This document shows positions 5,452-56,064 of a stretch of 64,000 bases of DNA, piece after piece. Below the pieces are notes generated by a model. That model did no database searches, was not told the origin of the DNA, and saw only the letters and a list, made by a program, of their open reading frames with translations. The DNA comes from a bacterium. Lineage in GTDB: Bacteria; Patescibacteriota; Minisyncoccia; UBA6257; MFKM01. Position 1 is the stretch's first letter. Each line of letters begins with the position of its first letter. The position numbers were made by a program, and so were the translations under genes. The stretch spans positions 65,324 through 129,323 of the forward strand of contig JAUYAV010000019.1 of NCBI GenBank assembly GCA_030693325.1, given 5' to 3'.

Positions 5452-5515
5452 TCTTAATTACTCAATTACTTAATTACCGTAATTACAGTAATTGCGGTAA
5501 TTACTGTAATTATTT
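5452..5515. repeat. Tandem array of about 7 units of the palindromic octamer GTAATTAC (period 8-9 bp); copy A of three in the window
   Basis: cttaattactcaattacttaattaccgtaattacagtaattgcggtaattactgtaattatt. Confidence 0.85.
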
Positions 5516-12924: not shown

Positions 12925-13599
12925 ATGGCACGATTTAAAGATCACGAAAAAGCGCTAAATTTAAGAAGGCAGGGAATGAGTTATAGCCAGATTAAGAAAT
13001 TGCTGAAAGTAAGCAAGGGCACTTTGAGTGTTTGGCTAAGAGATTATCCTCTATCAAAACAAAGGATAAGGGAGCTAAGAGATTGGAATGAACAAAGAAT
13101 TGAAAGGTGCAGAGAAACAAAACAAAGGAAGAAAGAAAAGAGACTTAAGGATGTTTATGAATTACAGGAAAAAATTCTTTTGCCCTTAAAAAGTAAAGAG
13201 ATTTTTATGATGGGTCTAGGTCTTTATTGGGGAGAAGGCACTAAACATAGAGCAGGTTGTCTTTCTGTTTCAAATACCGACCCGTCTATTATTAGATTTT
13301 TTATTTGCTGGCTTAATAAGAGTTTAAATGTTTCTAGAAATAAAATGAAAGTAGCTCTGCAATTATATAGCGATATGAATATTGATAAAGAGATGCGGTA
13401 TTGGTCAGAAACTTTAAAAATTCCCCTTCCTCAATTCGTAAAGCCGTATATTAAAAAAACTTCCAGTAAAAATATAAATCATAAAGGGGGCTTTGGACAC
13501 GGAACTTGTAATTTAAGGACAAATAACACTTCACTTTCCGAGAAAATTATTATGGGATTGAAAGTAATTTCGGATAAATATGGTCAAAGGGGCGTGTAG
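12925..13599 (+). CDS. HTH plus single LAGLIDADG-like domain protein (degenerate motif GLGLYWGEGTK); homing-endonuclease-like
   Basis: N-terminal HTH (MSYSQIKKLLKVSKGTLSVWL). C-terminal region is similar to the second domain of the 621-1292 endonuclease (DPSIIRFFICWLNKSL vs SPLFLNWIKNKI). Stop TAG is nt 8-10 of tRNA-Ile. Confidence 0.45.
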   Translation: MARFKDHEKALNLRRQGMSYSQIKKLLKVSKGTLSVWLRDYPLSKQRIRELRDWNEQRIERCRETKQRKKEKRLKDVYELQEKILLPLKSKEIFMMGLGLYWGEGTKHRAGCLSVSNTDPSIIRFFICWLNKSLNVSRNKMKVALQLYSDMNIDKEMRYWSETLKIPLPQFVKPYIKKTSSKNINHKGGFGHGTCNLRTNNTSLSEKIIMGLKVISDKYGQRGV

Positions 13600-13661
13600 C
13601 TCAGTGGTAGAGCGCTACTCTTATAAAGTAGAAGTCGCAGGTCCGATCCCTGCCACGCCCA
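13590..13661 (+). tRNA. tRNA-Ile (anticodon UAU)
   Basis: Acceptor GGGCGTG/CACGCCC, D-arm GCTC-AGTGGTA-GAGC, anticodon stem CTACT/AGTAG, loop CTTATAA, T-arm GCAGG-TCCGATC-CCTGC. Confidence 0.8.
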
Positions 13662-13795
13662 CAAAATTAAAAATTTTTTAGAGGTTGACATTAGAAATTC
13701 TTTTGCTAAGATAGGGTCTTTCACGCTCTTTAAAAACATATTGTTCTGCTTTTCGCTTTTAGCAGACGATTAAAATTAGGAAAGGGGGATATACG

Positions 13796-34271: not shown

Positions 34272-34298
34272 TTTTTTTGTCATTCTAAGGTATTCTAA

Positions 34299-34321
34299 AA
34301 TCGCCAAGCAGGCGATTTTTT
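34299..34321 (+). terminator. Weak terminator hairpin (aatcgcc/ggcgatt then T6)
   Basis: 7-bp stem, T run. Confidence 0.4.
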
Positions 34322-41451: not shown

Positions 41452-42774
41452 ATGCTAGACGTAAAATTTATCAGAGACAATCCGGAGTTGGTTAAAGAAG
41501 GAATCGCCAAAAAAAGAGCTGACCCTAAATTGGTGGATTCTTTTTTGCGGCTGGACGAGGACTGGCGGACTAAAGTCGCGGCCATTGACGAATTGCGCTC
41601 GGAGCATAATTTGAATAACACGGAATTGGCCAAACATCAGACCGATGATTTGCTCAGCAAAGCGGAAATTTTAAAAAAACAATTAATCAAACTGGAGGAT
41701 GACAAAAAAGATTTAGAGGAACGCCGTCAAGCCAAGCTTAATTTAATACCCAATTTACCTGATGCCGATGCGCTGTTGGGAAAAAACGAAACCGAAAATC
41801 AAGTTATAAAGGAAGTCGGTAAAAAACCTGAATTTTCCGCCAAAGGCGGATCCGCCGCAGGTGGAGATTTTGTTCCCAAGGATTATCTTTCTTTGGCCGA
41901 GAAACTCGGCATTATTGACGTGAAGCGAGCCGCCAAGGTTTCAGGTAGCCGTTTTGGCTATCTTCTGGGCACGGCCGCTCTTTTGGAGTTCGCTTTAATC
42001 AATTTCGCGATAAAACGCCTTCTTGACGAAGATTTTATTTCCGAAATAATCAAGAAAAATAATCTTAATATTTCCAAAAAGGCCTTTATTCCGGTTATAC
42101 CGCCGGTTTTAATCAACCGGAAATCAATGTGGGGGATGGGCTATCTGGACCAGGCCGCCGATGAAATTTATCATTTGGAAAAAGACGATCTTTATCTAGT
42201 GGGCACTTCGGAACAGTCGCTTGGAACGATGCACCAGGACGAAACTTTTAAAGAAAACGAGTTGCCTAAACGTTATGTCGGATTTTCTACCTGTTTTCGC
42301 CGTGAAGCCGGTTCTTACGGTAAAGATACTAAAGGCATTTTGCGAGTTCATCAGTTTAATAAACTGGAAATGTTCAGTTTCACTACTCCGGAAACTTCCA
42401 AAGAAGAACATAAATTATTTTTGGCGATTGAGGAGGCCTTGATGCAGGAACTGGAAATTCCTTATCGGGTAATGAATATTTGCACCGGCGATTTGGGCGC
42501 GCCGGCCGCTTCAAAATTTGACATTGAAGCGTGGTTCCCGAGCGAGAATATTTACCGCGAAACCCATTCCACTTCCAACTGCACCGATTATCAGGCGCGA
42601 AGATTAAATACCCGTTATAAAAACAAAGCCGGAAAGACGAATTTTGTTCATATGGTAAACGGCACGGTTTTTTCCCAGCGGCCCATCCTCTCCATTATTG
42701 AAAATTATCAAACCAAAGAAGGCGCTATAAACATTCCCAAGGTTTTGAGTTTTTATTTTGAGAAGCTAAAGTAG
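41452..42774 (+). CDS. serS: Seryl-tRNA synthetase
   Basis: N-terminal coiled coil plus class II core. Confidence 0.95.
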   Translation: MLDVKFIRDNPELVKEGIAKKRADPKLVDSFLRLDEDWRTKVAAIDELRSEHNLNNTELAKHQTDDLLSKAEILKKQLIKLEDDKKDLEERRQAKLNLIPNLPDADALLGKNETENQVIKEVGKKPEFSAKGGSAAGGDFVPKDYLSLAEKLGIIDVKRAAKVSGSRFGYLLGTAALLEFALINFAIKRLLDEDFISEIIKKNNLNISKKAFIPVIPPVLINRKSMWGMGYLDQAADEIYHLEKDDLYLVGTSEQSLGTMHQDETFKENELPKRYVGFSTCFRREAGSYGKDTKGILRVHQFNKLEMFSFTTPETSKEEHKLFLAIEEALMQELEIPYRVMNICTGDLGAPAASKFDIEAWFPSENIYRETHSTSNCTDYQARRLNTRYKNKAGKTNFVHMVNGTVFSQRPILSIIENYQTKEGAINIPKVLSFYFEKLK

Positions 42775-42841
42775 GAATTTTTGATAGTTTAATTCTCCTA
42801 GGTAGAGCCACAGCAATGGGTTTGGTCTATATTTCTAGAGC

Positions 42842-42859
42842 GATATACTTAAGTATATC
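42842..42859. promoter_or_regulatory. 18-bp perfect palindrome GATATACTTAAGTATATC (copy 1) at the 3' flank of the TrpR-like gene
   Basis: Exact self-complementary 18-mer. Confidence 0.8.
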
Positions 42860-42866
42860 ATGAAAA

Positions 42867-43256
42867 CTAAATAATGCTTTGGGCGCCTTTATAGCTTGGA
42901 AGCAATGGTTTGTATTTTTTCCCCTTCCTTGCCTCAATATCCAATAATTCTCTTGATTTAAAATTCTTTTTTATGATTCTTTTTCTTGGCTTCTTAAACC
43001 CACTTTTGACAAAACTTATGGTTTTCAAAGTTATGGCCAACTCTCTACTGATTTCTCTATAACTTAATCCTTTCTCCAAAAAATAAAAAATACCCAATCT
43101 TTTTTCAAAGACAATCTTTTCTTGGGGAGTAAAATATTTATCCGAAAAAGCGTCAAATTCTTCATAATTTTTTATATTTTTAATCTCTCGCAAAAACCGC
43201 GTCCAAATATCTTCCTTGAATTTTTTATCAAAATATTTTTTACAGGTCGTGGACAT
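42867..43256 (-). CDS. TrpR/YerC-YecD-like HTH DNA-binding protein
   Basis: FTPQEKIVFEKRLGIFYFLEKGLSYREISRELAITLKTIS matches the Trp-repressor-like fold. Confidence 0.6.
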   Translation of the reverse strand: MSTTCKKYFDKKFKEDIWTRFLREIKNIKNYEEFDAFSDKYFTPQEKIVFEKRLGIFYFLEKGLSYREISRELAITLKTISFVKSGFKKPRKRIIKKNFKSRELLDIEARKGKKYKPLLPSYKGAQSII

Positions 43257-43264
43257 ATTGAAAC

Positions 43265-43675
43265 GATATACTTAAGTATATCACCGTGGCTTAATTTAAG
43301 AATAAAACCCAATCAAATGATGTGTTAAGCGATATACTTAAGTATAACACTGTTGAAAAAAATATAAAATAAAAATAAATAAAAATATCGGATTTGTTCC
43401 AACACCGATAAGTTAATCCAACGCCTTAATCAAATACTCCAATCAAAAAGAGAGTCATATGCTGATATACTTAAGTATATCAGCATTAAAGAGATTTTCT
43501 TCTAGAATTTTTTGAGGGGCCGGAACAATCTAAAAAAGATGATCTAAGTTGGCTGAAAGAGATGGATTTAGAGGATATAAAAACTTAACTTTGGAATAAG
43601 GAGGAATAATCCATTCTTACGAGGTTTAACCTCGTAAGAATCTCTACTCCTACACTGATATACTTAAGTATATCA
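43265..43675. repeat. ORF-free region with four more copies of the GATATACTTAAGTATATC palindrome (43265, 43331 imperfect, 43464, 43656; extended to 22-24 bp in two copies)
   Basis: Copies read directly; the first lies 9 nt upstream of the TrpR-like start codon. Confidence 0.8.
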
Positions 43676-43856
43676 GCTTCGTAGATTACGATGGATTTGC
43701 TCCGACTTTGTCGAGAGTCTCCGACAGGAGTCGCGAGTCATCGGACCTCGATGAAATCGGGACAATTTTGAATCGCTTCTAAACATTATCGAGGTTCGAC
43801 CTCGATAATGTAAAAATTTTTATACTTAAGTCAACTATTGAGATTCAATCTCAATA
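43613..43856. repeat. Three further unrelated perfect hairpins: attcttacgagg/cctcgtaagaat at 43613-43641, cattatcgagg/cctcgataatg at 43784-43810, ctattgagat/atctcaatag at 43834-43856
   Basis: Exact inverted repeats with 3-5 nt loops. Confidence 0.7.
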
Positions 43857-43864
43857 GAAAAATT

Positions 43865-44251
43865 TTATGGGCACCCCGTGATAAGACCATCTTTAATAGT
43901 TGCTTGGCATTTGGTAGTACAAGTGGCATCTGCGCAAAGCCAATATGAAGCGCTATTGGTTAAACCTTGCGTTCCGTCTCCCGAGTAATAATCATTTGCT
44001 CGCAGTGTTCCATTTACTTCTAAAAGATAACTCGGCCCCGCCGTCCCGATGCCGACGTTGCCGTTATCTAATACTGCCATTCTCCATCCACCTGAATAAA
44101 ATCCTGTCCAATCTTCTGCGTCACCTCCACGGCCTATAAAAACTGTATCAGTTGTTGGAGTTCCTGATTCTGTAAACCATATACCACCGCCATTCCCGCC
44201 CGTACCACGAGTCCTTATTCTTCCGACAGTATCTAAAATGTATCCCGGCAC
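43865..44251 (-). CDS. Gly-rich small secreted protein with a GNVGIGT motif and Cys-rich C-terminus (last gene of the pilin operon)
   Basis: Shares the NGNVGIGTAGP repeat with the upstream large protein. Confidence 0.45.
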   Translation of the reverse strand: MPGYILDTVGRIRTRGTGGNGGGIWFTESGTPTTDTVFIGRGGDAEDWTGFYSGGWRMAVLDNGNVGIGTAGPSYLLEVNGTLRANDYYSGDGTQGLTNSASYWLCADATCTTKCQATIKDGLITGCP

Positions 44252-44282
44252 CGTCGTCCCGATGCCGACGTTGCCAGAATTT

Positions 44283-46754
44283 TTAATTAACTTTACAACA
44301 AATAGCTATACACTTATTACCGTACCCGCCACCGCTATAAGTATAGCAATTACAACCATCTGCGACGGGCATGGCAGTTTGGCCTTCTCCTCCTGGAGCA
44401 CATCCTGTTAGGCTATATCCAGCTGGACATGTAGCAGAAGTATAGGTACCTATTGCCGAGTCAGTAGTGACTGCAGTACACGTCAACCCCGTGCCACTCA
44501 ATGTTTTGCTATTAAAACTAGTTGCAATCGCAGCACCGTTTACATCTAACTTCGCCCCCGGACTCGCCGTCCCGATGCCGACGTTGCCGCTAACACTCAA
44601 ATCACTGGCAGTTATCACGCCGTAAGGCGCGGTTGGAGGAGTGAAATTAGAAGTCCAGCGGGCGATGCCCTTGGAGATACGGACTTCGTCTATCCAGCCA
44701 TTAAGATACATTGCTCCACCAGTCGAACCCATAACTAAAACGGATGCAGAATTAGGGAGTGTTCCTAATCCTGTAGTTGTTGATCCTACCTGTATTCCAT
44801 CTTTGAATATTCTTAAATTGTCGCCATTCCTTACAACTGCAAAATGATACCAAACATTAGTTGTATAGGTTACCGCACCTCCTACACTAGCAACTACACC
44901 TGAGTTTATTGAATAAAAAGATATTTGCTCACCACCATATCCTCCAAAATAGAAATATGGGTCAGAAACGCCTTGACCTACAAAGCCAGCCCAACCAGAT
45001 ACACTATTAAATTTTACCCAACTATCAATAGTAAAATCTCCAGTACCAAAATCCCAATCAGCACTATCTGGAACAGTAAGATAATCCGTGCTTCCGTTGA
45101 ACACGGCGCTTTTTGAACCAAACTTATACTGAGCGGTGGTTTGGGTGGCAGAGCCAACAGCGGTAACGGCTTTGCCTGTTGCCGAATCACTGAAGGAAGT
45201 TCCCGAACCCTCCATATGGAGTAATAACTTGTTGTAGCTGTCCGTTGTCTGCAATCCTTGGGGAGCGTTTATCAATCCGGCCACGTCTAATATATAACCC
45301 GGGTTAATTGTCCCGATGCCGACGTTGCCGGAGGAATTTACAACAAGGGCGTCAACTGCAGTAGGCGTAAGATATCTGACGATGACGATGCCTGAACCAC
45401 CAGCATAGCCTGGTGATGTTGCATACCGACCATCACCACCATTTCCACTATTTGCTGCACCTGCCGCAGAACCTCCACCACCATGACCACCTGCTGCATA
45501 GGTTATTGAAGCACCTGAAATAGAGTTCGCTGTCCCATTTCCTCCTACGCCTCCATTATGCAAAGGATTATTTGTTGGAGCCGAACCAACACTTGCTGAC
45601 CCTCCTCCTCCACCGCCACCTGCACCGCCTCCAGCATAACCATTCTGACCACCATTATACCCTTGGCTACCTGTTCCTACAGTTGCTGGACCATAATTGA
45701 AATAACCGGCGCCACCTCCGCTTCCTCCATTAACTCCGTTAGGTAGATTATTATCCTGTCCTGCAATCCACCCAGCCCCTCCACCACCACCGCCATTAGC
45801 AGTAATAGTTGAAAATACGGAATTATTACCAGAAGAACCTTTTACATACGCTCCAACTCCACCTGCACCACCATTACCAACAGTAACTGTGTAAGCTTGC
45901 GCAGTAACTGCTAAAGAAGCATTATATTGATAACCTCCTGCTCCTCCTCCACCCGCACCACCATTACCTGATGAACCTCCACCACCCCCACCTGCTACAA
46001 CAAGAACTTCTACATTTCTAGAAACATTTGGAGTGAAGGTTCCACCAGGATATGTAAAGGTATGAATAGTGTAACCCCCGATATATGTTATTGTTCCACC
46101 AGTAGCAGAAGATGTTGGTGTTACTTTTACATGTAAGGGTCCAGCCGGCGCTGTCGTCCCGATGCCGACGCTGCCGTCATTTAAAATTACCATTTTTCTT
46201 GCATCAGTATCGGCGCTGGCGAATGTTCCAAAAACAATATCATAGCGAGACATAATACCCAAATTTCTTCTACCTGAAGCGTTATAAGAAAATATTGATT
46301 GCCTGAAACTATCATCAGTGCCATCTGTTAAATTTATTACAGCACCCAAGGTAGTCATATCTGGAAAATAACTTGAGCTAACAAACGCACCCGCAGTACT
46401 TCCAATTTGTACTTGTTTGTAAGTATCCCCTTGCACCTGCAACTTTGACAATGGATTCGCCGTCCCGATGCCCACGTTCCCGGCGTTGGTATTGTAGATA
46501 TTAGTGGAAGAAGCGGCCCAACCCACGCCTCCAAGAACAGACCAAGCGCCGCTCGCGTAACCCCGGAAAGCGTTGCTCGCGGTATTGTAGTAGATAGACC
46601 CGTTCTGGGCTCCGGCCACGGGGTCGTTAATCAGCTGGCCCACATTGAGGAGATTGGAAATGTTGATGTCTTTCCATTTGTAAGTGGCATCACCCAGGGA
46701 AAAAGAATTGTTGGTATTGGGAATCAAACTATCGTCAAAGGTGGCGGCGCTCAC
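44283..46754 (-). CDS. Large Gly-rich surface protein with GNVGIGT repeats and a C-terminal LamG/ConA-like lectin domain; probable pilus-associated adhesin
   Basis: About 5 copies of xGNVGIGTxxP; poly-Gly tracts; LamG-like region (WDFGTGDFTIDSWVKF...WYHFAVVRNGDNLRIFKDG); sits immediately after the pilin gene. Confidence 0.55.
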   Translation of the reverse strand: MSAATFDDSLIPNTNNSFSLGDATYKWKDINISNLLNVGQLINDPVAGAQNGSIYYNTASNAFRGYASGAWSVLGGVGWAASSTNIYNTNAGNVGIGTANPLSKLQVQGDTYKQVQIGSTAGAFVSSSYFPDMTTLGAVINLTDGTDDSFRQSIFSYNASGRRNLGIMSRYDIVFGTFASADTDARKMVILNDGSVGIGTTAPAGPLHVKVTPTSSATGGTITYIGGYTIHTFTYPGGTFTPNVSRNVEVLVVAGGGGGGSSGNGGAGGGGAGGYQYNASLAVTAQAYTVTVGNGGAGGVGAYVKGSSGNNSVFSTITANGGGGGGAGWIAGQDNNLPNGVNGGSGGGAGYFNYGPATVGTGSQGYNGGQNGYAGGGAGGGGGGGSASVGSAPTNNPLHNGGVGGNGTANSISGASITYAAGGHGGGGSAAGAANSGNGGDGRYATSPGYAGGSGIVIVRYLTPTAVDALVVNSSGNVGIGTINPGYILDVAGLINAPQGLQTTDSYNKLLLHMEGSGTSFSDSATGKAVTAVGSATQTTAQYKFGSKSAVFNGSTDYLTVPDSADWDFGTGDFTIDSWVKFNSVSGWAGFVGQGVSDPYFYFGGYGGEQISFYSINSGVVASVGGAVTYTTNVWYHFAVVRNGDNLRIFKDGIQVGSTTTGLGTLPNSASVLVMGSTGGAMYLNGWIDEVRISKGIARWTSNFTPPTAPYGVITASDLSVSGNVGIGTASPGAKLDVNGAAIATSFNSKTLSGTGLTCTAVTTDSAIGTYTSATCPAGYSLTGCAPGGEGQTAMPVADGCNCYTYSGGGYGNKCIAICCKVN

Positions 46755-46769
46755 TCTGCCGATGGCGAT

Positions 46770-47243
46770 CTAGAGGGCTCTCGTTATCTGCTGATAGGGA
46801 TTCTGGCTGTTGTAGGTCAAAGAAAGGTTGATCTGGACAATGGCGTGGGCCTGGGGGTTTTCGTATTTGATGGCTTCAAACTGGGCAACCTTCACCTGGC
46901 TGTTGGTCAGGGAGTAGGTTTCTCCCGTGCCCTGCTTCAGATAAATACCATTGGCATCGGAGGAAATAATGGTGGGGTCCAAAGAAGACGAAGCCATTCT
47001 CAAGACCAGACTGGAAGAAGCCACTCCGGCCGGGTTCTCTATATTGGCGCTGTCTCTGACCAATCTTTGAATAGTTGACTGGACAAACGACAATTGCTGG
47101 GTGAGCTCGGAATCAGCCGAGGTCTGGGTCTGGACCCGGGTGAAGGTGATGAGAACTCCGGAGAAGACCCCGACGGAGATGGAGAAGATGGCAGTATAGA
47201 TTAAAAGCTCAATAAGAGTGAAACCTTTTTGAGATTTATTCAT
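46770..47243 (-). CDS. Type IV pilin / pseudopilin (prepilin N-terminal methylation motif)
   Basis: MNKSQKGFTLIELLI class-III signal sequence. Confidence 0.8.
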   Translation of the reverse strand: MNKSQKGFTLIELLIYTAIFSISVGVFSGVLITFTRVQTQTSADSELTQQLSFVQSTIQRLVRDSANIENPAGVASSSLVLRMASSSLDPTIISSDANGIYLKQGTGETYSLTNSQVKVAQFEAIKYENPQAHAIVQINLSLTYNSQNPYQQITRAL

Positions 47244-49894: not shown

Positions 49895-50902
49895 ATGAAA
49901 CTCTCAATCGGAATCGTCGGCTTGCCTAATGTCGGCAAGTCAACGTTATTCAAATTAATAACAAAACAAGAAGTTAATATCGCCAATTATCCTTTCGCCA
50001 CCATTGACCCGAATGTCGGCGTGGTTCCCGTTCCCGATGAGCGATTGGAAAAATTGGCGAAATTAAGCGCTTCAAAAAAAATTATTCCGGCGGTGGTGGA
50101 ATTTTACGATATTGCCGGCCTGGTCAAAGGCGCCAATAAAGGCGAGGGTTTGGGCAATCAGTTTTTGTCGCACATCAGGGAAGTAAACGCCGTAGTTGAG
50201 GTCGTCAGGTGTTTTCAGTTGGGCGAGATTATCCATGTTGAAAACAGAGTTGATCCCATAAAAGACATGGAAATCGTTAACACGGAACTGATTTTGAAAG
50301 ATTTGGAAATTGTTGAAAAAAGAGCCGCAAAACTGGAAGGGGAAATTAAAACAGGTGGCAATAAAAAAATAAAAGATTTTGAAACGGTTAAAAAAATCCA
50401 AGACGAACTGAATAAAAATATTTTGGCGGTTAATCTTGATAAAGATTTATTAAGCGAACCGGTTATCCAAGAATTGAATCTTTTGACTTCCAAGCCGCAG
50501 ATTTATCTTTTAAACGGCGCGGTTGGAGACGTTTCCGAGGAATTGAAAGCCGGAATTAAATCCCTCAAAGCTGATTATTTAATATCGGATTTGGGCATGG
50601 AGCAAAACGTGAATGACCTAATCAAAAAGGCGTACGAAATTCTCGGGCTAATCAGTTTTTTGACTACCGGCGAAGACGAAACCCGGGCCTGGACCGTCAA
50701 AAAAGGAGCCAAAGCGCCCGAAGCCGCCGGCGTTATTCACACCGATTTTGAAAATAAATTCATCAGAGCTGAAGTGGTTAATTGGGAAAAATTATTGGAA
50801 GCCGGCAGTTGGGTAAAGGCGAAACAAAAAGGCCTGGTTAGGATTGAAGGCAAGGATTATGAAGTTCAGGATGGCGATGTGATGGAAATAAGACATTCTT
50901 AG
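49895..50902 (+). CDS. ychF: Ribosome-binding ATPase YchF
   Basis: IGIVGLPNVGKSTLF...NYPFATIDPNVGVV. Confidence 0.9.
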   Translation: MKLSIGIVGLPNVGKSTLFKLITKQEVNIANYPFATIDPNVGVVPVPDERLEKLAKLSASKKIIPAVVEFYDIAGLVKGANKGEGLGNQFLSHIREVNAVVEVVRCFQLGEIIHVENRVDPIKDMEIVNTELILKDLEIVEKRAAKLEGEIKTGGNKKIKDFETVKKIQDELNKNILAVNLDKDLLSEPVIQELNLLTSKPQIYLLNGAVGDVSEELKAGIKSLKADYLISDLGMEQNVNDLIKKAYEILGLISFLTTGEDETRAWTVKKGAKAPEAAGVIHTDFENKFIRAEVVNWEKLLEAGSWVKAKQKGLVRIEGKDYEVQDGDVMEIRHS

Positions 50903-50949
50903 TTTTGTTTGTCTTGAGTAAATCTCATAATTTTTATATATTTAACGAT

Positions 50950-53900
50950 ATGCTGAAAGACATTAAGAATCTGAAAAATTCCGAGCTTGAAGAAAAAGTT
51001 CTTAAATTCTGGCAGGAAAATAAAATTTTTGAGAAATCCCTGGAGAGACGAGCGAAGAAACCGCTTTTTTCTTTTTATGACGGACCGCCTTTCGCCAACG
51101 GTTTGCCTCACTACGGCCATATTTTAGCCACCGTTATTAAAGACGCTACGACCCGTTTTTGGACAATGGCCGGCTTCAGGGTTGAACGCCGGGTGGGCTG
51201 GGATACTCACGGTTTGCCCGTGGAAACCGAGATTGAAAAACAATTGAATCTCAAGGGCAAAAAAGACATTGAAAAATTCGGCATTGAAAAATTTAACGCC
51301 GCCTGCCGCGATTCGGTTTTCCGTTATAAAAAAGAATGGGAAAAAACTCTTGAAAGAGTCGGCCGCTGGGCTGATTATGGGAACGCTTACGCCACTTTGG
51401 ACAATTCCTACATGGAATCGGTCTGGTGGGTTTTTAAAAAACTTTGGGAACAAAAACTGATTTATAAAGATTTCCGGGTAACGCCGTATTGTTTCCGCTG
51501 TGGCACGCCTTTATCCAATTTTGAAGTAAATCAGGGCTACCGGGAAGCCGAAGACCCATCGGTTTACGTGAAATTTAAAATAAAAAATCCGAAATCTTCA
51601 AAAAACGAATATTTGCTGGTTTGGACGACTACCCCCTGGACATTGCCTGCCAATGCCGCCATTGCCGTTAATCCGGATTTAATTTATACGAAATATTCGG
51701 TGAATGGAGATTATCTTTTTTCTTATAGCGCGCCTCCGGCTTTAACCGGCGTTAAAATTGAAGCTGTTGAAAAAATTTCCGGCAAAAAACTTGCAGGTTT
51801 GGAATACGAGCCGCTTTATAAACTTGCAGGTTCGGAATTTAAAGTTAATGATTGTTATCGGGTTTTGCCGGCTGATTTTATTTCAACCGAAGAGGGGACG
51901 GGGTTGGTTCATATCGCGCCGGCTTTCGGAGAGGAAGACATGAAAGTGGGCAAAAAAAATAATCTTCCGGTTCTAATAACCGTGGATGAAGAGGGGAAAA
52001 TGAAAACGCCGGGTTATTCTTGGAACGGTTTGTTCGTCAAAGAAGCCGATAAAGTCATTTTTGAAGATTTAGAAAAAAGAAATCTTTTGTACAAAAAAGA
52101 AACCGTTCTTCACCAGTATCCTTTTTGCTGGCGCTGTGATTCGCCGTTGCTTTATTATCCTTTAAGCACCTGGTATATCGCCGTTGCCAAAATCAAAAAT
52201 AAATTAATAAAAAATAACAAGAAAATTCATTGGGTGCCGGAGCATATTAAAGAAGGAAGGTTCGGCAAGTGGCTGGCTGAAGCGCGGGATTGGGCTTTTT
52301 CCCGGAATCGTTTCTGGGGCGCGGCGTTGCCGATTTGGCAGTGCCAGTCCTGTCAGCAAAATATCGCCATAGGTTCCCTGAAAGAGTTGGCGCAATCGGC
52401 GGTTAATGCGAATAATCATTATTTTATTTTGCGGCATGGTCAGGCCGAATCAAACCATCATAAAATTATTTCTTGCTGGCCGGAAAAAATAACAGTCAAA
52501 CTTACTGACAAAGGAAGGGAACAAATTGAAAAAATCGCCCAAGTTTTAAACAAAAAAAATATTCAACTTATTTTTTCTTCGGACCTTTTGCGCACCAAAG
52601 AAACCGCCGGGATTGTTTCTAAAAAAATTAATATTCCGGTTAATTTTGACGAACGTTTAAGAGAATATAATGTCGGGGAATTCAACGGGCAACCGATAGA
52701 AAAATTCAACGATTTTATGGGCGAGAAAATAAATTTATTTTCTAAAACTCCCGAAGGAGGAGAGAATTTAAGCGATATTAGGAAACGGATGATGGATTCT
52801 ATTTTGGAATTGGAAAAAAAATATAAAAATAAAAATATTTTGATTGTCAGCCACGGCGATCCGCTCTGGATTTTGGAAGGAGCCAGCCAGGGGCTCAACG
52901 AGAAAGAGCTTGTAAAATCAATGGAAAATTACATTAAAGTAGGCGAACTGCGGGAAATCAAACTTTCCAATTTACCTTATGACGGGGAAGGGAAATTAGA
53001 TTTACATCGCCCTTATATAGACAAAATAGAATTGCGGTGTCCCGAATGTGAAGGCCGGGCCAAGCGTGTTTCGGAGGTTTTTGACTGCTGGTTTGAATCC
53101 GGCTCCATGCCTTACGGCCAATGGCATTATCCTTTTGAGAATAAAAATTTGGTGGAAAAAACTTTTCCCGCTGATTTCATCGCTGAAGGCCTGGACCAAA
53201 CCCGGGGCTGGTTTTACACTCTTCATGTTTTAGCCGGCGCTTTATTTAATAAACCGGCTTTTAAAAACGTAGTTGTTAACGGACTTGTTTTAGACGCCCG
53301 TGGAATGAAATTAAGCAAAAAACTGCGCAACTACGCCGAACCGGAAATAATTTTTGATAAATACGGGGCTGACGCTTTGCGTTATTTTCTTCTGAGCTCC
53401 ACTCAAATCGGCGAGGATTATCAGTTTTCCGAAAAAGGCGTGGCAGAAATTTTCCGGAAGGTGATTGATAAATTCAGGAATGTTTTCAATTTTTATCAGC
53501 TATACGCGGGGAATATCCGCATAAATCCCTGCCTGCCTGCCTGCAGAAGCGTTTCTTTATTGGATAAATGGATTTTAGCCCGGCTCAACGAAGTCATCTT
53601 AAAAATGACCGAAAAAATGGAGGCCTATGAACTTACCGATGCCACCAGAATTCTTATGGAATTTATTGACGACCTTTCAAATTGGTTTGTCAGGCGTTCC
53701 CGGAAAAGATTTTCGGGTGAAGATTCCAAACAGGCCTCGGCCGTGCTTGGTTATATAATTTTGGAAACCAGCAAATTAATGGCGCCTTTCGCCCCGTTTA
53801 TTAGCGAGGCGATTCATATGACTTTGACGCAAAATTCGGTTCATCTTGAAGATTGGCCCAAAGCTGATAAAAATCTGATTGATAAGAATTTGTTGGAATC

Positions 53901-54410: not shown

Positions 54411-54444
54411 ATTCAGGTACTATCACGCGTGATAGTACCTGAAT
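54411..54444. promoter_or_regulatory. 34-bp perfect palindrome with core ACTATCACGCGTGATAGT, at the 3' flank of the second TrpR-like gene (likely also the ileS terminator)
   Basis: attcaggtactatcacgcgtgatagtacctgaat. Confidence 0.8.
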
Positions 54445-54454
54445 TTATACTATT

Positions 54455-54892
54455 TTATCCCTGGTAATTTAAAAATTTCCATCTTTTGCCGCCTTTGGTT
54501 GGAAAAGGGAAATTAAGCCAATAATCTAAGATTGTTTTTTGCGGCGGTAATCCTTTTTTGTGTTTTTCTATTTTTTCGCTTTTGCTTTTTTTGGCGTAAT
54601 AACGATTGCTTTGATAGCCGGATTGTTTTTCAATGCTCTTTTTAAGAGCGCTAATAGTGCTTGGAGAAATCCATAAAATTTCTTCTATTTCTTTATAGGA
54701 TTTTCCGGCTTTTATCATCGCCAGAGCCGTTAATCTTTTTATAATTAATTTTTTTTCGTTGGCGCTTAGTAAATTATCTAAAAAATTCTTTAATTGTTTT
54801 TCAGACCTCGCTCTTTCGGCATTTTCCAAAAATTTGGACCAAAGGAAATCCTCCCATTCTTTTCTTGATTTAAATTCAGAGATTTTTTTCAT
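54455..54892 (-). CDS. TrpR/YerC-YecD-like HTH DNA-binding protein (paralog 2)
   Basis: LLSANEKKLIIKRLTALAMIKAGKSYKEIEEILWISPSTIS. Confidence 0.6.
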   Translation of the reverse strand: MKKISEFKSRKEWEDFLWSKFLENAERARSEKQLKNFLDNLLSANEKKLIIKRLTALAMIKAGKSYKEIEEILWISPSTISALKKSIEKQSGYQSNRYYAKKSKSEKIEKHKKGLPPQKTILDYWLNFPFPTKGGKRWKFLNYQG

Positions 54893-54945
54893 AGATATTG
54901 TTCGGTCTATTTTAGCTAATTTTAAGATAAAATTTATTTTTATTC

Positions 54946-54967
54946 AAACTATCACGCGTGATAGTTT
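54946..54967. promoter_or_regulatory. Second copy of the ACTATCACGCGTGATAGT palindrome, about 55 nt upstream of the TrpR-like paralog 2 start
   Basis: aaactatcacgcgtgatagttt. Confidence 0.8.
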
Positions 54968-55074: not shown

Positions 55075-56064
55075 TTATTGGCGATACATTGCCCTTTTAA
55101 CGAGTTGCAGAGTTTCTTGGGCGTTAGCTCGGGCGATTTTGGCGCCTTCTTCCAGTATAGATGAGATGAACGAATTATTTTGAGACATCTCGCTTTTTTT
55201 AGCCTGAAATTCGGCCAAGAAATTATTAGTGATACGAATAAAAAGTTGCTTGAATTGTCCCATCACCGGTTTGCCTTTTTTGTGTTCCTTAATTAGAGAA
55301 TCTATTTCTTCTTTTTCTTGATCATTTTTACATAAACTTTTAGCAACAAGGATGTGACTTTCCAGTTTTTCGTTCATTGCTCCTTCGAATGCGGTTTCCG
55401 CGCCTTTAATTTTTCTGGCAACGGTTTTTGCGTCATCCGTAAGAAAAATGGCTCCTTCCGGAGAGCTTTTGCTCATTTTCCCTTCTCCTTTTAAAGAAAG
55501 GATTTTAAGCGCGTCTATTTGAAGGGGTTGTGGAAGCGGGAAAATTTTTCCATATTTTTTATTAAACCTTCTAGCGAGTTCTCGGCTCACTTCTAAGTGC
55601 GCGAGCTGGTCTTTTCCGACTGGAATTTTTTCTGCTCGCTGAAGCAATATGTCGGCAGTCATCATTACCGGATAAAGAAGGAGAAATGTATTCGCTGTTT
55701 CCGGTCGCACGTTGGCTTTTAATTTTTCTTTGAGGGTGGGGACTCTTAAAAGTTCAGACACGTTTATTAAACGAGATAGAAACATAGTCAAAACAGATAC
55801 CTCGTTTTCAATATCAGATTGTAAAAAGATTTTAGTTTTATCGGGATTTATTCCGAACGCGATGTAATCAGCAACAACTTCATTGACAAATTTTTTTGCA
55901 TTGGCCGGTTCATTGTCGGTTATGGCGTGAAGGTCGGCGACAAAAACCAAAGGGGATCGGCCTTTGTTTTGGAGTTCAACAATAGGTTTAATCGCTCCAA
56001 GATAATTGGCGATCGTCAAATCGCCAGTTGGGCGAATGCCTGTCAAAATTTCAATTTTAGTCAT
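55075..56064 (-). CDS. trpS: Tryptophanyl-tRNA synthetase
   Basis: HIGH-type N-terminus and KMSKS. Confidence 0.95.
   Translation of the reverse strand: MTKIEILTGIRPTGDLTIANYLGAIKPIVELQNKGRSPLVFVADLHAITDNEPANAKKFVNEVVADYIAFGINPDKTKIFLQSDIENEVSVLTMFLSRLINVSELLRVPTLKEKLKANVRPETANTFLLLYPVMMTADILLQRAEKIPVGKDQLAHLEVSRELARRFNKKYGKIFPLPQPLQIDALKILSLKGEGKMSKSSPEGAIFLTDDAKTVARKIKGAETAFEGAMNEKLESHILVAKSLCKNDQEKEEIDSLIKEHKKGKPVMGQFKQLFIRITNNFLAEFQAKKSEMSQNNSFISSILEEGAKIARANAQETLQLVKRAMYRQ

Follow-up and report, generated by a model that had tools for sequence, protein, structure and literature searches.

What is the role of a 600-bp stretch that carries no long open reading frame (ORF) in a genome whose genes are otherwise tightly packed? 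We address this question for positions 43260-43860 of a 64,000-nucleotide segment, hereafter called the window (contig JAUYAV010000019.1 of assembly GCA_030693325.1, positions 65,324 to 129,323 of the forward strand), from a member of the candidate phyla radiation (CPR; Patescibacteria). The window has a GC content of ~41% and is 81-93% identical at the nucleotide level to contigs of the 'Candidatus Paceibacterota' metagenome-assembled genome (MAG) JAVHOD. A previous examination of the DNA letters, hereafter called the sequence-only reading, had noted four operator-like dyads in this stretch and had proposed a multi-operator control region, a cluster of small RNAs, or a replication or partition site. 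As described below, the dyads are probably the cognate operators of a TrpR-fold protein encoded directly beside them.

A palindrome on both sides of a TrpR-like gene

The dyad is an 18-bp perfect palindrome, GATATACTTAAGTATATC. Exact copies begin at positions 42842, 43265, 43464, and 43657, and a copy with one mismatch (ending in TATAAC) begins at position 43331. These five copies and one half-site all fall within 42842-43834, compared to 0.02 copies expected from shuffled sequences, and there are no further copies elsewhere in the 64-kb window. Four of the dyads (three exact, one with a mismatch) reside inside the ORF-free region, just as the sequence-only reading had counted. Their spacing is irregular, as it had also stated, but the start-to-start distances are 66, 133, and 193 nt rather than 66 to 191 bp; up to the half-site they are 66, 133, 193, and 162 nt. 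It was likewise right to reject a CRISPR (clustered regularly interspaced short palindromic repeats) array, because the spacing is irregular, the repeats are perfect palindromes, and there is no cas gene nearby. Two observations go beyond that reading: the dyad is a CPR-wide element, and a further copy resides downstream of the adjacent gene, at position 42842.

This adjacent gene (42867-43256, minus strand) encodes a protein of 129 aa with five predicted helices that include a helix-turn-helix, followed by a disordered basic C-terminal tail. The protein scores 36.3 bits against the Pfam model PF01371 (Trp_repressor; cut-off 27). An AlphaFold2 (AF2) model built from a 32-sequence family alignment has a mean predicted local distance difference test (pLDDT) score of 81, with values above 90 over residues 11-80. 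The top 29 Foldseek matches of this model in the Protein Data Bank (PDB) are all TrpR or TrpR-like (probability 0.93-1.00), and an hhalign comparison of the family profile with Escherichia coli TrpR gives a probability of 95% over residues 13-90. By sequence and fold, the protein thus belongs to the TrpR superfamily, but it is neither TrpR proper (TIGR01321, 16.2 bits versus a cut-off of 67.25, below the equivalog level) nor a YerC/YecD equivalog (TIGR02531, 23.1 bits versus a cut-off of 42.2). A close homologue in the databases is annotated just as 'Trp family transcriptional regulator' or 'uncharacterized protein YerC'.

A HMMER search of 1.8 billion representative proteins yielded 263 family clusters (50% identity), with members mostly of 120-135 aa that share the motifs MxxxSKKYF, EKRL, SYREI, and TISFVKxGFKK; most of them also carry the tail P-YKGKGRWRF. 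A metagenome scan with a 6-sequence family alignment returned only 3 loci. When the corepressor pocket was compared by hhalign, the equivalents of E. coli T44 and R54 were found to be retained as T43 and R53. The L-tryptophan pocket is not conserved, however, as the position of E. coli R84 is taken by F82, an almost invariant residue of the family, and that of S88 by G86. No trp or aro gene adjoins any dyad, either in the window or in at least 30 CPR loci. Furthermore, neither the protein nor the 32-sequence alignment contains an HUH, tyrosine, serine, or DDE catalytic motif or a conserved nucleophile. A full-text literature search found no relevant paper on the motif, on this family, or on Trp repressors or palindromic regulators in CPR.

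Close relatives were then used to establish which parts of the locus are maintained. The loci fetched (L009, L053-55, L056, and L057, where L marks our numbering of loci from other genomes) encode proteins that are 72-91% identical to the one in the window. In relatives with a protein that is 82-91% identical, the dyads are invariant islands in fast-diverging noncoding DNA. The downstream dyad, O_D (42842-42859, exact), begins 8 nt beyond the stop codon, between the convergent serS and TrpR-like genes, and its position is kept in L009, L052, L053, and L057. The proximal dyad, O1 (43265-43282), ends 8 nt before the ATG and reads towards the gene as TGATATACT, which resembles an extended -10 element. 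It is invariant in L009, L053/54, and L057 despite diverged flanks. O3, which is also invariant, resides within a 28-bp perfect palindrome, ATGCTGATATACTTAAGTATATCAGCAT (43459-43486), that is kept with the same flanks in L009 and L053/54. O4 is embedded in a perfect palindrome of 22 bp (43655-43676). The sequence-only reading had recognized that two dyads are extended, but its estimate of 22-24 bp fits only the latter. Both O3 and O4 carry TG-extended -10-like elements (TGnTATACT) on both strands.

The remaining copies are less widely kept. The mismatched dyad O2 (43331-43348, GATATACTTAAGTATAAC) is common to the window and L053/L054 only, and its minus strand offers a promoter-like arrangement of a -35 TTTATA, a 16-nt spacer, TG, and a -10 TATACT. 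A TG-extended TATACT is aimed at the gene in the window, L009, and L053, in each case without a good -35 element. The half-site, TATACTTAAGT, is a sixth, partial copy (43821-43834, with the match at 43821-43831) whose minus strand, TTGACTTAAGTATA, overlaps a -35-like TTGACT. The number of extra dyads also varies: upstream and downstream of the gene, respectively, there are four and two in L053, five and one in L057, and one and at least four in L056, where the downstream copies have a period of ~70 bp up to the contig end.

The sequence-only reading had proposed comparison with relatives as a check on the region as a whole. The dyads are conserved, as is a small hairpin, TATCGG-N13-CCGATA (43386-43410), which is the sole non-dyad element conserved in all four relatives compared. 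The rest of the inter-dyad sequence has diverged quickly, and the distal part (43490-43860) has no counterpart in any fetched locus. In two relatives the inter-dyad space is occupied by other genes, namely a HicAB module in L009 and a 29-codon ORF plus a ParE-type module in L053.

Palindromes and proteins that vary together

Each type of homologue has its own perfect palindrome near its own gene, on both sides except in L066, where sites are found upstream only. In type 1, which includes the window and its relatives, GATATACTTAAGTATATC is paired with a protein that carries the residues TLK before the TIS(F) motif. L070 also has TLK, and its site is GTTATACTTAAGTATAAC, present as TGTTATACTTAAGTATAACA upstream and 5 nt after the stop codon. 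L069 carries TAN and has GATATAGTATACTATATC on both sides, and L059 (32% identity to the query) carries SSN and has GATATAGTTAACTATATC at a distance of 49 nt upstream; its downstream copy, 96 nt away, is a 40-bp perfect palindrome. L058 (44%) carries SLS with GATAGTGTTAACACTATC, seen as ..TGATAGTGTTAACACTATCA.. upstream and as CTGTTAGTGTTAACACTAACAG 12 nt after the stop codon. In L067/L068 the residues are SSS, and CTTTGATTAATCAAAG is located 37 nt upstream and over the stop codon. L071 (TDR) has four copies of TACTATATCATGATATAGTA, two upstream and two downstream, and L072 (SRT) has GGTTCATTTAACTGAACC upstream and 3 nt after the stop codon. L066 (50%) has three upstream copies of the type-1 dyad. 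As a side observation, the type-1 TrpR-like gene of a Colwellbacteria MAG (L038, 5234-5584) is split over two frames, by pseudogene formation or sequencing error, and its upstream dyad is intact.

The window itself provides an internal control in the form of a second TrpR-family gene (54455-54892, minus strand, 145 aa; 54411-54967 with its sites), whose neighbours are the 3' region of ileS on one side and a class I Trp/Tyr-type tRNA synthetase gene (55075-56064) on the other. This paralogue scores 41.2 bits against PF01371, matches the family with an hhalign probability of 99%, and carries the residues SPS. Its site, ACTATCACGCGTGATAGT, has the core CTATCACGCGTGATAG, which is found in a 22-bp palindrome 53 nt upstream of the ATG (54946-54967) and in a 34-bp palindrome 10 nt past the stop codon (54411-54444). 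The window holds just these two copies of the core, and neither paralogue's site adjoins the gene of the other.

When these pairs are compared, TLK is found with GATATAC or GTTATAC, both TAN and SSN are found with GATATAG, and SLS, SSS, TDR, SRT, and SPS are found with other cores. Of the three residues ahead of TIS(F), a conserved motif in the recognition helix, the second and third align by hhalign with I79-A80 of E. coli TrpR, known from the TrpR-operator literature as operator-specificity positions. Because the palindrome and the specificity residues change together, we read the dyads as the operators of the protein. The predicted operators are 18 bp long and mostly TTAA centred, and site and protein co-vary in 10 types. 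This co-variation is strong indirect evidence that the dyads are the operators, and from it we infer binding. In addition, all site types have a self-complementary centre (TTAA, TATA, CATG, or CGCG), which fits a two-fold symmetric dimer on duplex DNA and which an RNA loop would not need. Most likely, then, the protein binds the dyads as a symmetric dimer, as E. coli TrpR does on its 18-bp TTAA-centred operator. The multi-operator control region of the sequence-only reading is thus supported by the TrpR fold, by the dyads that bracket the gene, and by a palindrome that changes with the protein across homologues.

If this reading is correct, the gene would be bracketed by one operator over its own promoter (O1, with its extended -10) and one just past its stop codon, with four further full or partial sites in the upstream noncoding DNA. 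Occupancy of O1 and O2 would turn off transcription of the repressor gene (autorepression). O_D, at 423 bp centre to centre, and the distal sites could then serve as auxiliary operators, by looping or cooperative capture, and/or as insulating roadblocks. Some distal dyads might in addition act as promoters under repressor control, from which short transcripts would run to the perfect hairpins and stop there. The geometry of the downstream site is compatible with a looping partner 423 bp off, with a roadblock or insulator for convergent genes, or with an operator for the next gene; in L058, for example, the downstream site is positioned 25 nt upstream of the comEC C-terminal ORF, an arrangement that corresponds to the last option. 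What the sequence analysis shows directly are the site statistics, the TrpR fold, site conservation versus diverged flanks, and the co-variation of site and protein; actual binding, dimer stoichiometry, repression, looping, and promoter activity are proposals built on these.

Dispersed copies and competing explanations

A scan for the exact 18-mer in one genome per species identified 52 loci. Of these, 30 come from 13 MAGs labeled Parcubacteria, Paceibacterota, Wolfebacteria, Colwellbacteria, Saccharibacteria, or Patescibacteria, with ~2-6 contigs per MAG. The enrichment in CPR is very large, as by our own estimate CPR accounts for ~1% of the bases searched. These dispersed sites are almost all intergenic, and they often reside within perfect palindromes of 24-46 bp. 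At 22 of 67 CPR sites, 4 to 14 extra bases per side are perfectly complementary, compared to ~0.4% expected by chance, and the extensions differ from site to site (caggt/acctg, cagac/gtctg, and attcc/ggaat, for example). The extensions end abruptly, a G:T pair is found at 10 of 67 first mismatches (no excess), and pairing is not resumed after the mismatch. Sites that touch the gene have no stem extension. The abrupt ends and the lack of a G:T excess indicate that the palindromes are maintained or generated at the DNA level and not as RNA stems. Template switching at quasi-palindromes is a known mutational process and could be the source of the flank palindromy.

Matches to the 18-mer in IMG/VR (L060-L065) were rejected because they correspond to the variable arm of a phage tRNA-Ser and are unrelated to the CPR element. 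In five viral contigs (e.g., L064, 3983-4080), the 18-mer forms the long variable arm of what by eye is a tRNA-Ser with anticodon GCT, and the match looks coincidental.

Several of these features weigh against the operator interpretation. For an autoregulated repressor, it is unusual to have a conserved operator directly behind the stop codon. At least 13 CPR MAGs carry the exact 18-mer at scattered intergenic positions, beside unrelated housekeeping genes. The dispersed sites are agnostic to orientation, occurring in convergent, tandem, and divergent gaps, and only ~45% have a gene start within 150 nt; such a pattern does not resemble a classical regulon. The site-specific complementary flanks (at least 4 extra bases at each of the 22 sites mentioned above) are not explained by a binding site alone, and the dispersed sites of the closest MAG (L026 and L036) reside in segments that are absent from the orthologous places of the window. 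The resemblance to a -10 element is lost in the L067-type site, and therefore promoter function is no general property of the family's sites. Finally, both the binding and the regulatory output rest on inference from sequence.

Among the alternatives, the one that survives best is the proposal that the region consists of short repressor-controlled transcription units for small RNAs or micro-peptides, in which the dyads would be bidirectional extended -10 promoters and the hairpins would end the transcripts. We regard this as possible but doubtful, and it is compatible with the operator interpretation rather than exclusive of it. The proposal arises because several dyads resemble TG-extended -10 promoters followed by a hairpin. 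Candidate units run from O3 to a hairpin at 43613-43641 (~165 nt) and from O4 to a hairpin at 43783-43811 (~145 nt), with the TGnTATACT elements of both dyads on both strands. The first hairpin, ATTCTTACGAGGTT-A-AACCTCGTAAGAAT, can be drawn as 14+1+14 or as a 13-bp stem with a 3-nt loop. The second, ACATTATCGAGGT-TCG-ACCTCGATAATGT, has a 13-bp stem and a 3-nt loop and was flagged by our scan as terminator-like on the plus strand. A third perfect hairpin, CTATTGAGATT-C-AATCTCAATAG (43835-43857; 11+1+11, or a 10-bp stem with a 3-nt loop), is found just downstream of the 3' end of a surface-protein/pilin-like operon (43865-47243, minus strand). The sequence-only reading had reported these three hairpins with slightly different stem lengths and had called them unrelated. 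However, the first two are variants of one motif, pal2 (CGAGGTYNRACCTCG), which within the window is confined to them (0.01 expected), and therefore that description does not apply to this pair.

Between O4 and the second pal2 hairpin is a GC-richer segment with GAGTC/TCGAG repeats (43690-43770), which is present as previously described and has predicted structure on both strands. Folding z-scores for 43675-43815, which includes the pal2 hairpin, are -4.0 and -4.8. In L053, moreover, a dyad (position 1056, in a 36-bp palindrome) is directly upstream of the 29-codon ORF, with a GGAG ribosome-binding site in the palindrome arm, and the HicAB and ParE-type modules noted above demonstrate that the inter-dyad space of relatives can hold real cargo.

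Other observations speak against such units. It is chiefly the perfect hairpins that produce the folding z-scores, and a U-tract is missing from two of the three. The GC-richer segment has homologous sequence in no fetched locus and might represent cargo, a relic, or a short transcript. When Rfam 15 was searched at gathering and permissive thresholds, only tRNAs reached the gathering score, and the best matches in 42750-43950 were eukaryotic miRNA and snoRNA models with E values of 0.4-9. As the sequence-only reading had stated, the interval 43260-43860 contains no complete ORF of at least 60 aa; one 68-aa ORF with a TTG start (43122-43328), antisense to the TrpR-like gene, reaches 69 nt into the region. 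Nor does 43260-43860 offer a credible ORF that combines a ribosome-binding site with a standard start codon. With no Rfam match and with inter-dyad sequence that is unconserved even at 82-91% protein identity, the small-RNA cluster that had been proposed earlier finds no positive evidence.

The pal2 motif has a setting of its own in relatives, where it abuts the -35 element of toxin-antitoxin operon promoters. The pal2 palindrome TTATCGAGGTCGAACCTCGATAA (L009 1184-1204 and L053 ~1120-1145), followed by TTGACT, 17 nt, and TGTGATAAnAT, makes up a shared promoter module of ~55 nt that precedes two different toxin-antitoxin operons, HicAB in L009 and a ParE type in L053. The window has two pal2 copies and no toxin-antitoxin genes. 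A further pal2 match in L058 resides within a coding region and is probably a chance match.

The main rival to the operator interpretation, retained because the dispersal features resemble those of repetitive extragenic palindromic (REP) elements with their REP-associated tyrosine transposase (RAYT) gene, is a self-spreading cassette. It would consist of a helix-turn-helix gene between two palindromes that is now, or was recently, mobile or selfish, and the ORF-free stretch would be made of accumulated copies and cargo remnants. We consider this unlikely, and slightly more so than the short transcription units. The same low standing applies to its broader form, in which the TrpR-like gene and its palindromes are a self-propagating REPtron-like module with a non-transposase DNA-binding protein, or else a CPR-specific genome-wide roadblock or architectural system. 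If it is a self-propagating module, its palindromes would spread between genes and expand there into long perfect palindromes and arrays, and they would mark hypervariable regions that bear cassettes.

The gene neighbourhood fits this proposal in that it differs by lineage (serS/pilin operon, recR/grpE, map, parAB, or M16 peptidase/rpe). ComEC is encoded in two pieces, a DUF4131+Competence ORF and a metallo-beta-lactamase ORF, in both L058 (1453-4323) and L040 (4898-7227). These two ORFs overlap by 4 nt in L040, and in L058 a palindrome-gene-palindrome unit is positioned exactly between them. Furthermore, type-1 gene DNA is 76-80% identical among Saccharibacteria MAGs, Colwellbacteria MAGs, and the window, compared to 65-68% between housekeeping genes of other CPR loci and the window, although this high identity may reflect a short, lysine-rich, strongly constrained gene. 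The intergenic location of the dispersed dyads, their indifference to orientation, and their frequent inclusion in long palindromes with abrupt ends and no G:T excess are also expected of such a cassette, but the flank palindromy could be passive if it arises by template switching.

Dyads also occur in segments that differ by insertion or deletion between close relatives. In one case, a 1.1-kb segment of L036 (904-2011) is absent from the window between an upstream gene and ileS (50902-50950), where the two genes are ~45 nt apart. A 10-bp direct repeat (tcaagacaaa) borders the segment, which carries a dyad together with an ORF of 38 codons and a gene for a Gly-rich surface protein. Either the relative gained it by an insertion that duplicated the target, or the window lost it by a deletion between the repeats; no terminal inverted repeats were seen at its ends. 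Dyad-plus-spacer arrays are present on at least 3 contigs of one MAG, and tandem arrays in relatives have a period of ~70-80 bp. Very often, a contig terminus is at most a few hundred bases away from a dyad or array (L009, L012, L020, L026, L035, L052, L053, L055, and L056), as if assembly had broken at repeats, at long palindromes, or where the population is variable. A 2680-bp contig (L047, JAUYBE010000015.1) has a 141-nt terminal overlap that implies a circular or tandem unit of 2539 bp. It contains a single dyad, an ORF of 96 aa, and the gene for a beta-helix protein of 600 aa whose C-terminal domain is of the phage-depolymerase type; an excised circle, a tandem duplication, and an artefact of assembly are all conceivable origins.

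What argues against mobility is that the protein has a TrpR-type DNA-binding fold alone, free of any catalytic motif or conserved nucleophile. In an all-against-all BLAST comparison of 61 flanking proteins, no family besides the TrpR-like gene recurs. No recombinase is a recurrent neighbour, and an inspection of 12 loci revealed neither an integrase nor a transposase close to the gene. A scan of IMG/VR yielded no relative of the protein, and most site types are known as a bracketing pair only. The BLAST comparison also led us to reject a regulon defined by the function of neighbouring genes. Some dyads do adjoin comEC, comFC, ruvB, or MPG (L040 has two type-1 dyads upstream of the first comEC half, and L045 has a dyad beside a ComFC-like gene), but not clearly above the share that these genes have in CPR genomes.

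It is more improbable still that the palindromes act as RNA or single-strand hairpins, that is, as terminators, stabilisers, or stem-loops bound by the basic, Trp-containing tail, rather than as duplex operators. At a third of CPR sites the flanks do change in concert so that the stem becomes longer, the flanks in L004, L030, L041, and L050 have A-runs and T-runs like bidirectional terminators, many sites are at 3' ends or between convergent genes, and the family conserves its basic tail (...YKGKGRWRF). However, the self-complementary centres described above are not needed by a loop, the stems are perfect Watson-Crick helices that end abruptly with no surplus of G:T pairs and no resumed pairing, and gene-adjacent sites lack extended stems. 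Sites are also present in divergent promoter regions (L006, L019, and L043). In addition, intrinsic terminators of the ordinary type, with no relation to the dyad, exist in this lineage; one example is AAAATCGCC-AAGCA-GGCGATTTT at 34297-34319.

The last candidate of the sequence-only reading, a replication origin or centromere-like partition site with iteron-like dyads and an A/T unwinding element, is very improbable and already largely refuted by the sequence evidence: cumulative GC skew climbs on both sides of the locus (from 0 to 2.03 over the window) with no switch and a single local dip at the minus-strand surface-protein genes (44-46 kb); TTATCCACA with at most one mismatch is absent between 38131 and 50733 (17 in the window versus 13.8 expected), so that 42800-43900 has no DnaA-box-like 9-mer; and no dnaA, dnaN, rep, parA, parB, ParM, or TubZ gene is adjacent in the window. 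In its favour are the multiple copies of one motif, the A/T run, the tandem arrays of relatives, a homologue 0.6 kb from parA-parB, and the fact that TrpR and DnaA domain IV belong to one structural superfamily. But a second bracketed paralogue 11 kb away would make for two origins or centromeres oddly close together, and the L067 gap beside parA holds tRNA-like genes (by eye), with no dyads other than the bracket pair. The A/T-rich segment that had been noted earlier is present, with a pure A/T run of 33 nt (43356-43388) that is kept in L053/L054 and absent from L009 and L057. Because it is located just upstream, in gene orientation, of the O2 promoter-like site, it is better read as promoter-upstream DNA, presumably an UP element or -35 region rather than an unwinding element. 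Integron attC sites or CALIN arrays (clusters of attC sites lacking integrases) were also rejected, as the palindromes are perfect, span 18-46 bp, and lack RYYYAAC/GTTRRRY cores, and no integrase is present in the window region or related loci.

Other features of the window can be listed briefly. A scan for perfect hairpins and palindromes (arm of at least 9, loop of at most 5) returned 23, compared to ~3.6 in first-order Markov simulations, and 7 of the 23 are within 42842-43857, or 1.6% of the window. Long perfect palindromes are also present at 2951-2983, at 5480-5512, and at 442-487, where the 46-bp AAAATTAAAAGGCGATGCCTGGCGCCAGGCATCGCCTTTTAATTTT between a tRNA-Arg gene and a convergent tRNA-Leu gene resembles a bidirectional terminator. 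A tRNA-Ile with anticodon TAT, uncommon in bacteria, was predicted by ARAGORN at 13590-13662. Neighbours of the TrpR-like gene in the window are serS, a lysS/asnS-type synthetase gene, greA, and the pilin-like/LamG surface-protein operon. In this operon, 31 nt separate a 128-aa ORF (43865-44251) from an 823-aa Gly-rich/LamG ORF (44283-46754) on the same strand, and both contain the repeat ggcaccgtcgtcccgatgccgac, which is also present in the surface-protein gene of L036. With a pilin-like gene (46770-47243) as a further member, these ORFs form a variable operon for surface proteins, immediately upstream of the dyad region.

Significance and relation to known systems

CPR bacteria have very few transcription factors, essentially none of which has a known binding site, and their regulation is almost unknown. 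This locus supplies a candidate CPR factor with an exact 18-bp site, along with a panel of natural specificity variants in the form of ten protein/palindrome pairs whose co-varying residues map onto I79-A80 of TrpR. Two paralogues, each with its own site, serve as a control within one genome. Because the motif is found across Paceibacteria, Wolfebacteria, Colwellbacteria, and Saccharibacteria MAGs, sometimes beside comEC, comFC, or pilin-type genes, it could open a route into the regulation of these organisms. If the operator interpretation is true, the pairing of protein and palindrome would be widespread and undescribed in CPR bacteria. The operator past the stop codon, the growth of palindromes, and the arrays at contig breaks also bear on how sites and palindromes proliferate in small genomes, and the palindrome features that are not explained may account for recurrent assembly breaks in CPR MAGs.

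Among known systems, E. coli TrpR is a close parallel in several respects. The fold is the same according to Pfam, Foldseek, and hhalign, the residues that co-vary with the site align with I79-A80, the putative operator overlaps a -10-like promoter sequence, and the repressor gene has its own operator. E. coli TrpR is autoregulated. Both proteins are associated with perfect or near-perfect 18-bp palindromes centred on TTAA. The E. coli operator consensus, GTACTAGTTAACTAGT(AC) (PMC2811016), is such a palindrome, and its central 10 bp, TAGTTAACTA, are common to the L059-type site. In contrast to E. coli TrpR, the CPR protein is not an orthologue, has no trp genes nearby, carries Phe and Gly in place of R84 and S88 (corepressor and DNA contacts), and has an extra basic C-terminal tail. 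The putative operator past the stop codon, the arrays, and the dispersed copies in long perfect palindromes have no counterpart in TrpR.

YerC/YecD and HisR of Firmicutes are also small TrpR-family helix-turn-helix proteins, and HisR reportedly binds palindromic operators upstream of his genes (PMC9413887). The family described here differs in that it misses the YerC/YecD cut-off and, as far as sampled, is restricted to CPR. We know of no report of the bracket architecture for either YerC/YecD or HisR.

A primary operator at the promoter and an identical auxiliary operator 423 bp away recall the looping systems of lac, gal, and deo, and lac O2 is located 401 bp downstream of O1. Unlike in those systems, looping and the tetramerisation it would need are putative here, and TrpR itself is not known to loop DNA.

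REP elements and their RAYT genes (REPtrons) share with our locus a small gene flanked by copies of a palindrome that is hairpin-capable and dispersed intergenically, preferentially away from promoters. RAYTs, however, are homologues of HUH/Y1 transposases, whereas the protein here is a TrpR-fold helix-turn-helix protein without a catalytic motif; searches with the protein gave only TrpR and helix-turn-helix matches and none to an IS200/IS605-like transposase, with no HUH motif or conserved Tyr in the 32-sequence alignment. Furthermore, each MAG has a handful of copies rather than hundreds, and REPs are imperfect and species specific, whereas the 18-mer is exact across CPR classes. The stoperators of mycobacteriophage cluster A, known from L5 and Bxb1, are similar in that many repressor sites occupy short intergenic gaps as possible transcription roadblocks. 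But stoperators are asymmetric, oriented with transcription, and phage borne, whereas the sites described here are symmetric and chromosomal, and no relative of the protein was found in the viral contigs of IMG/VR.

Overall, to judge from these comparisons, the locus belongs to a familiar class, that of a repressor with its putative operators. Its unusual features, which are apparently undescribed, are a CPR-wide family, a gene bracketed by palindromes, natural specificity variants, operator arrays, and copies in long perfect palindromes.

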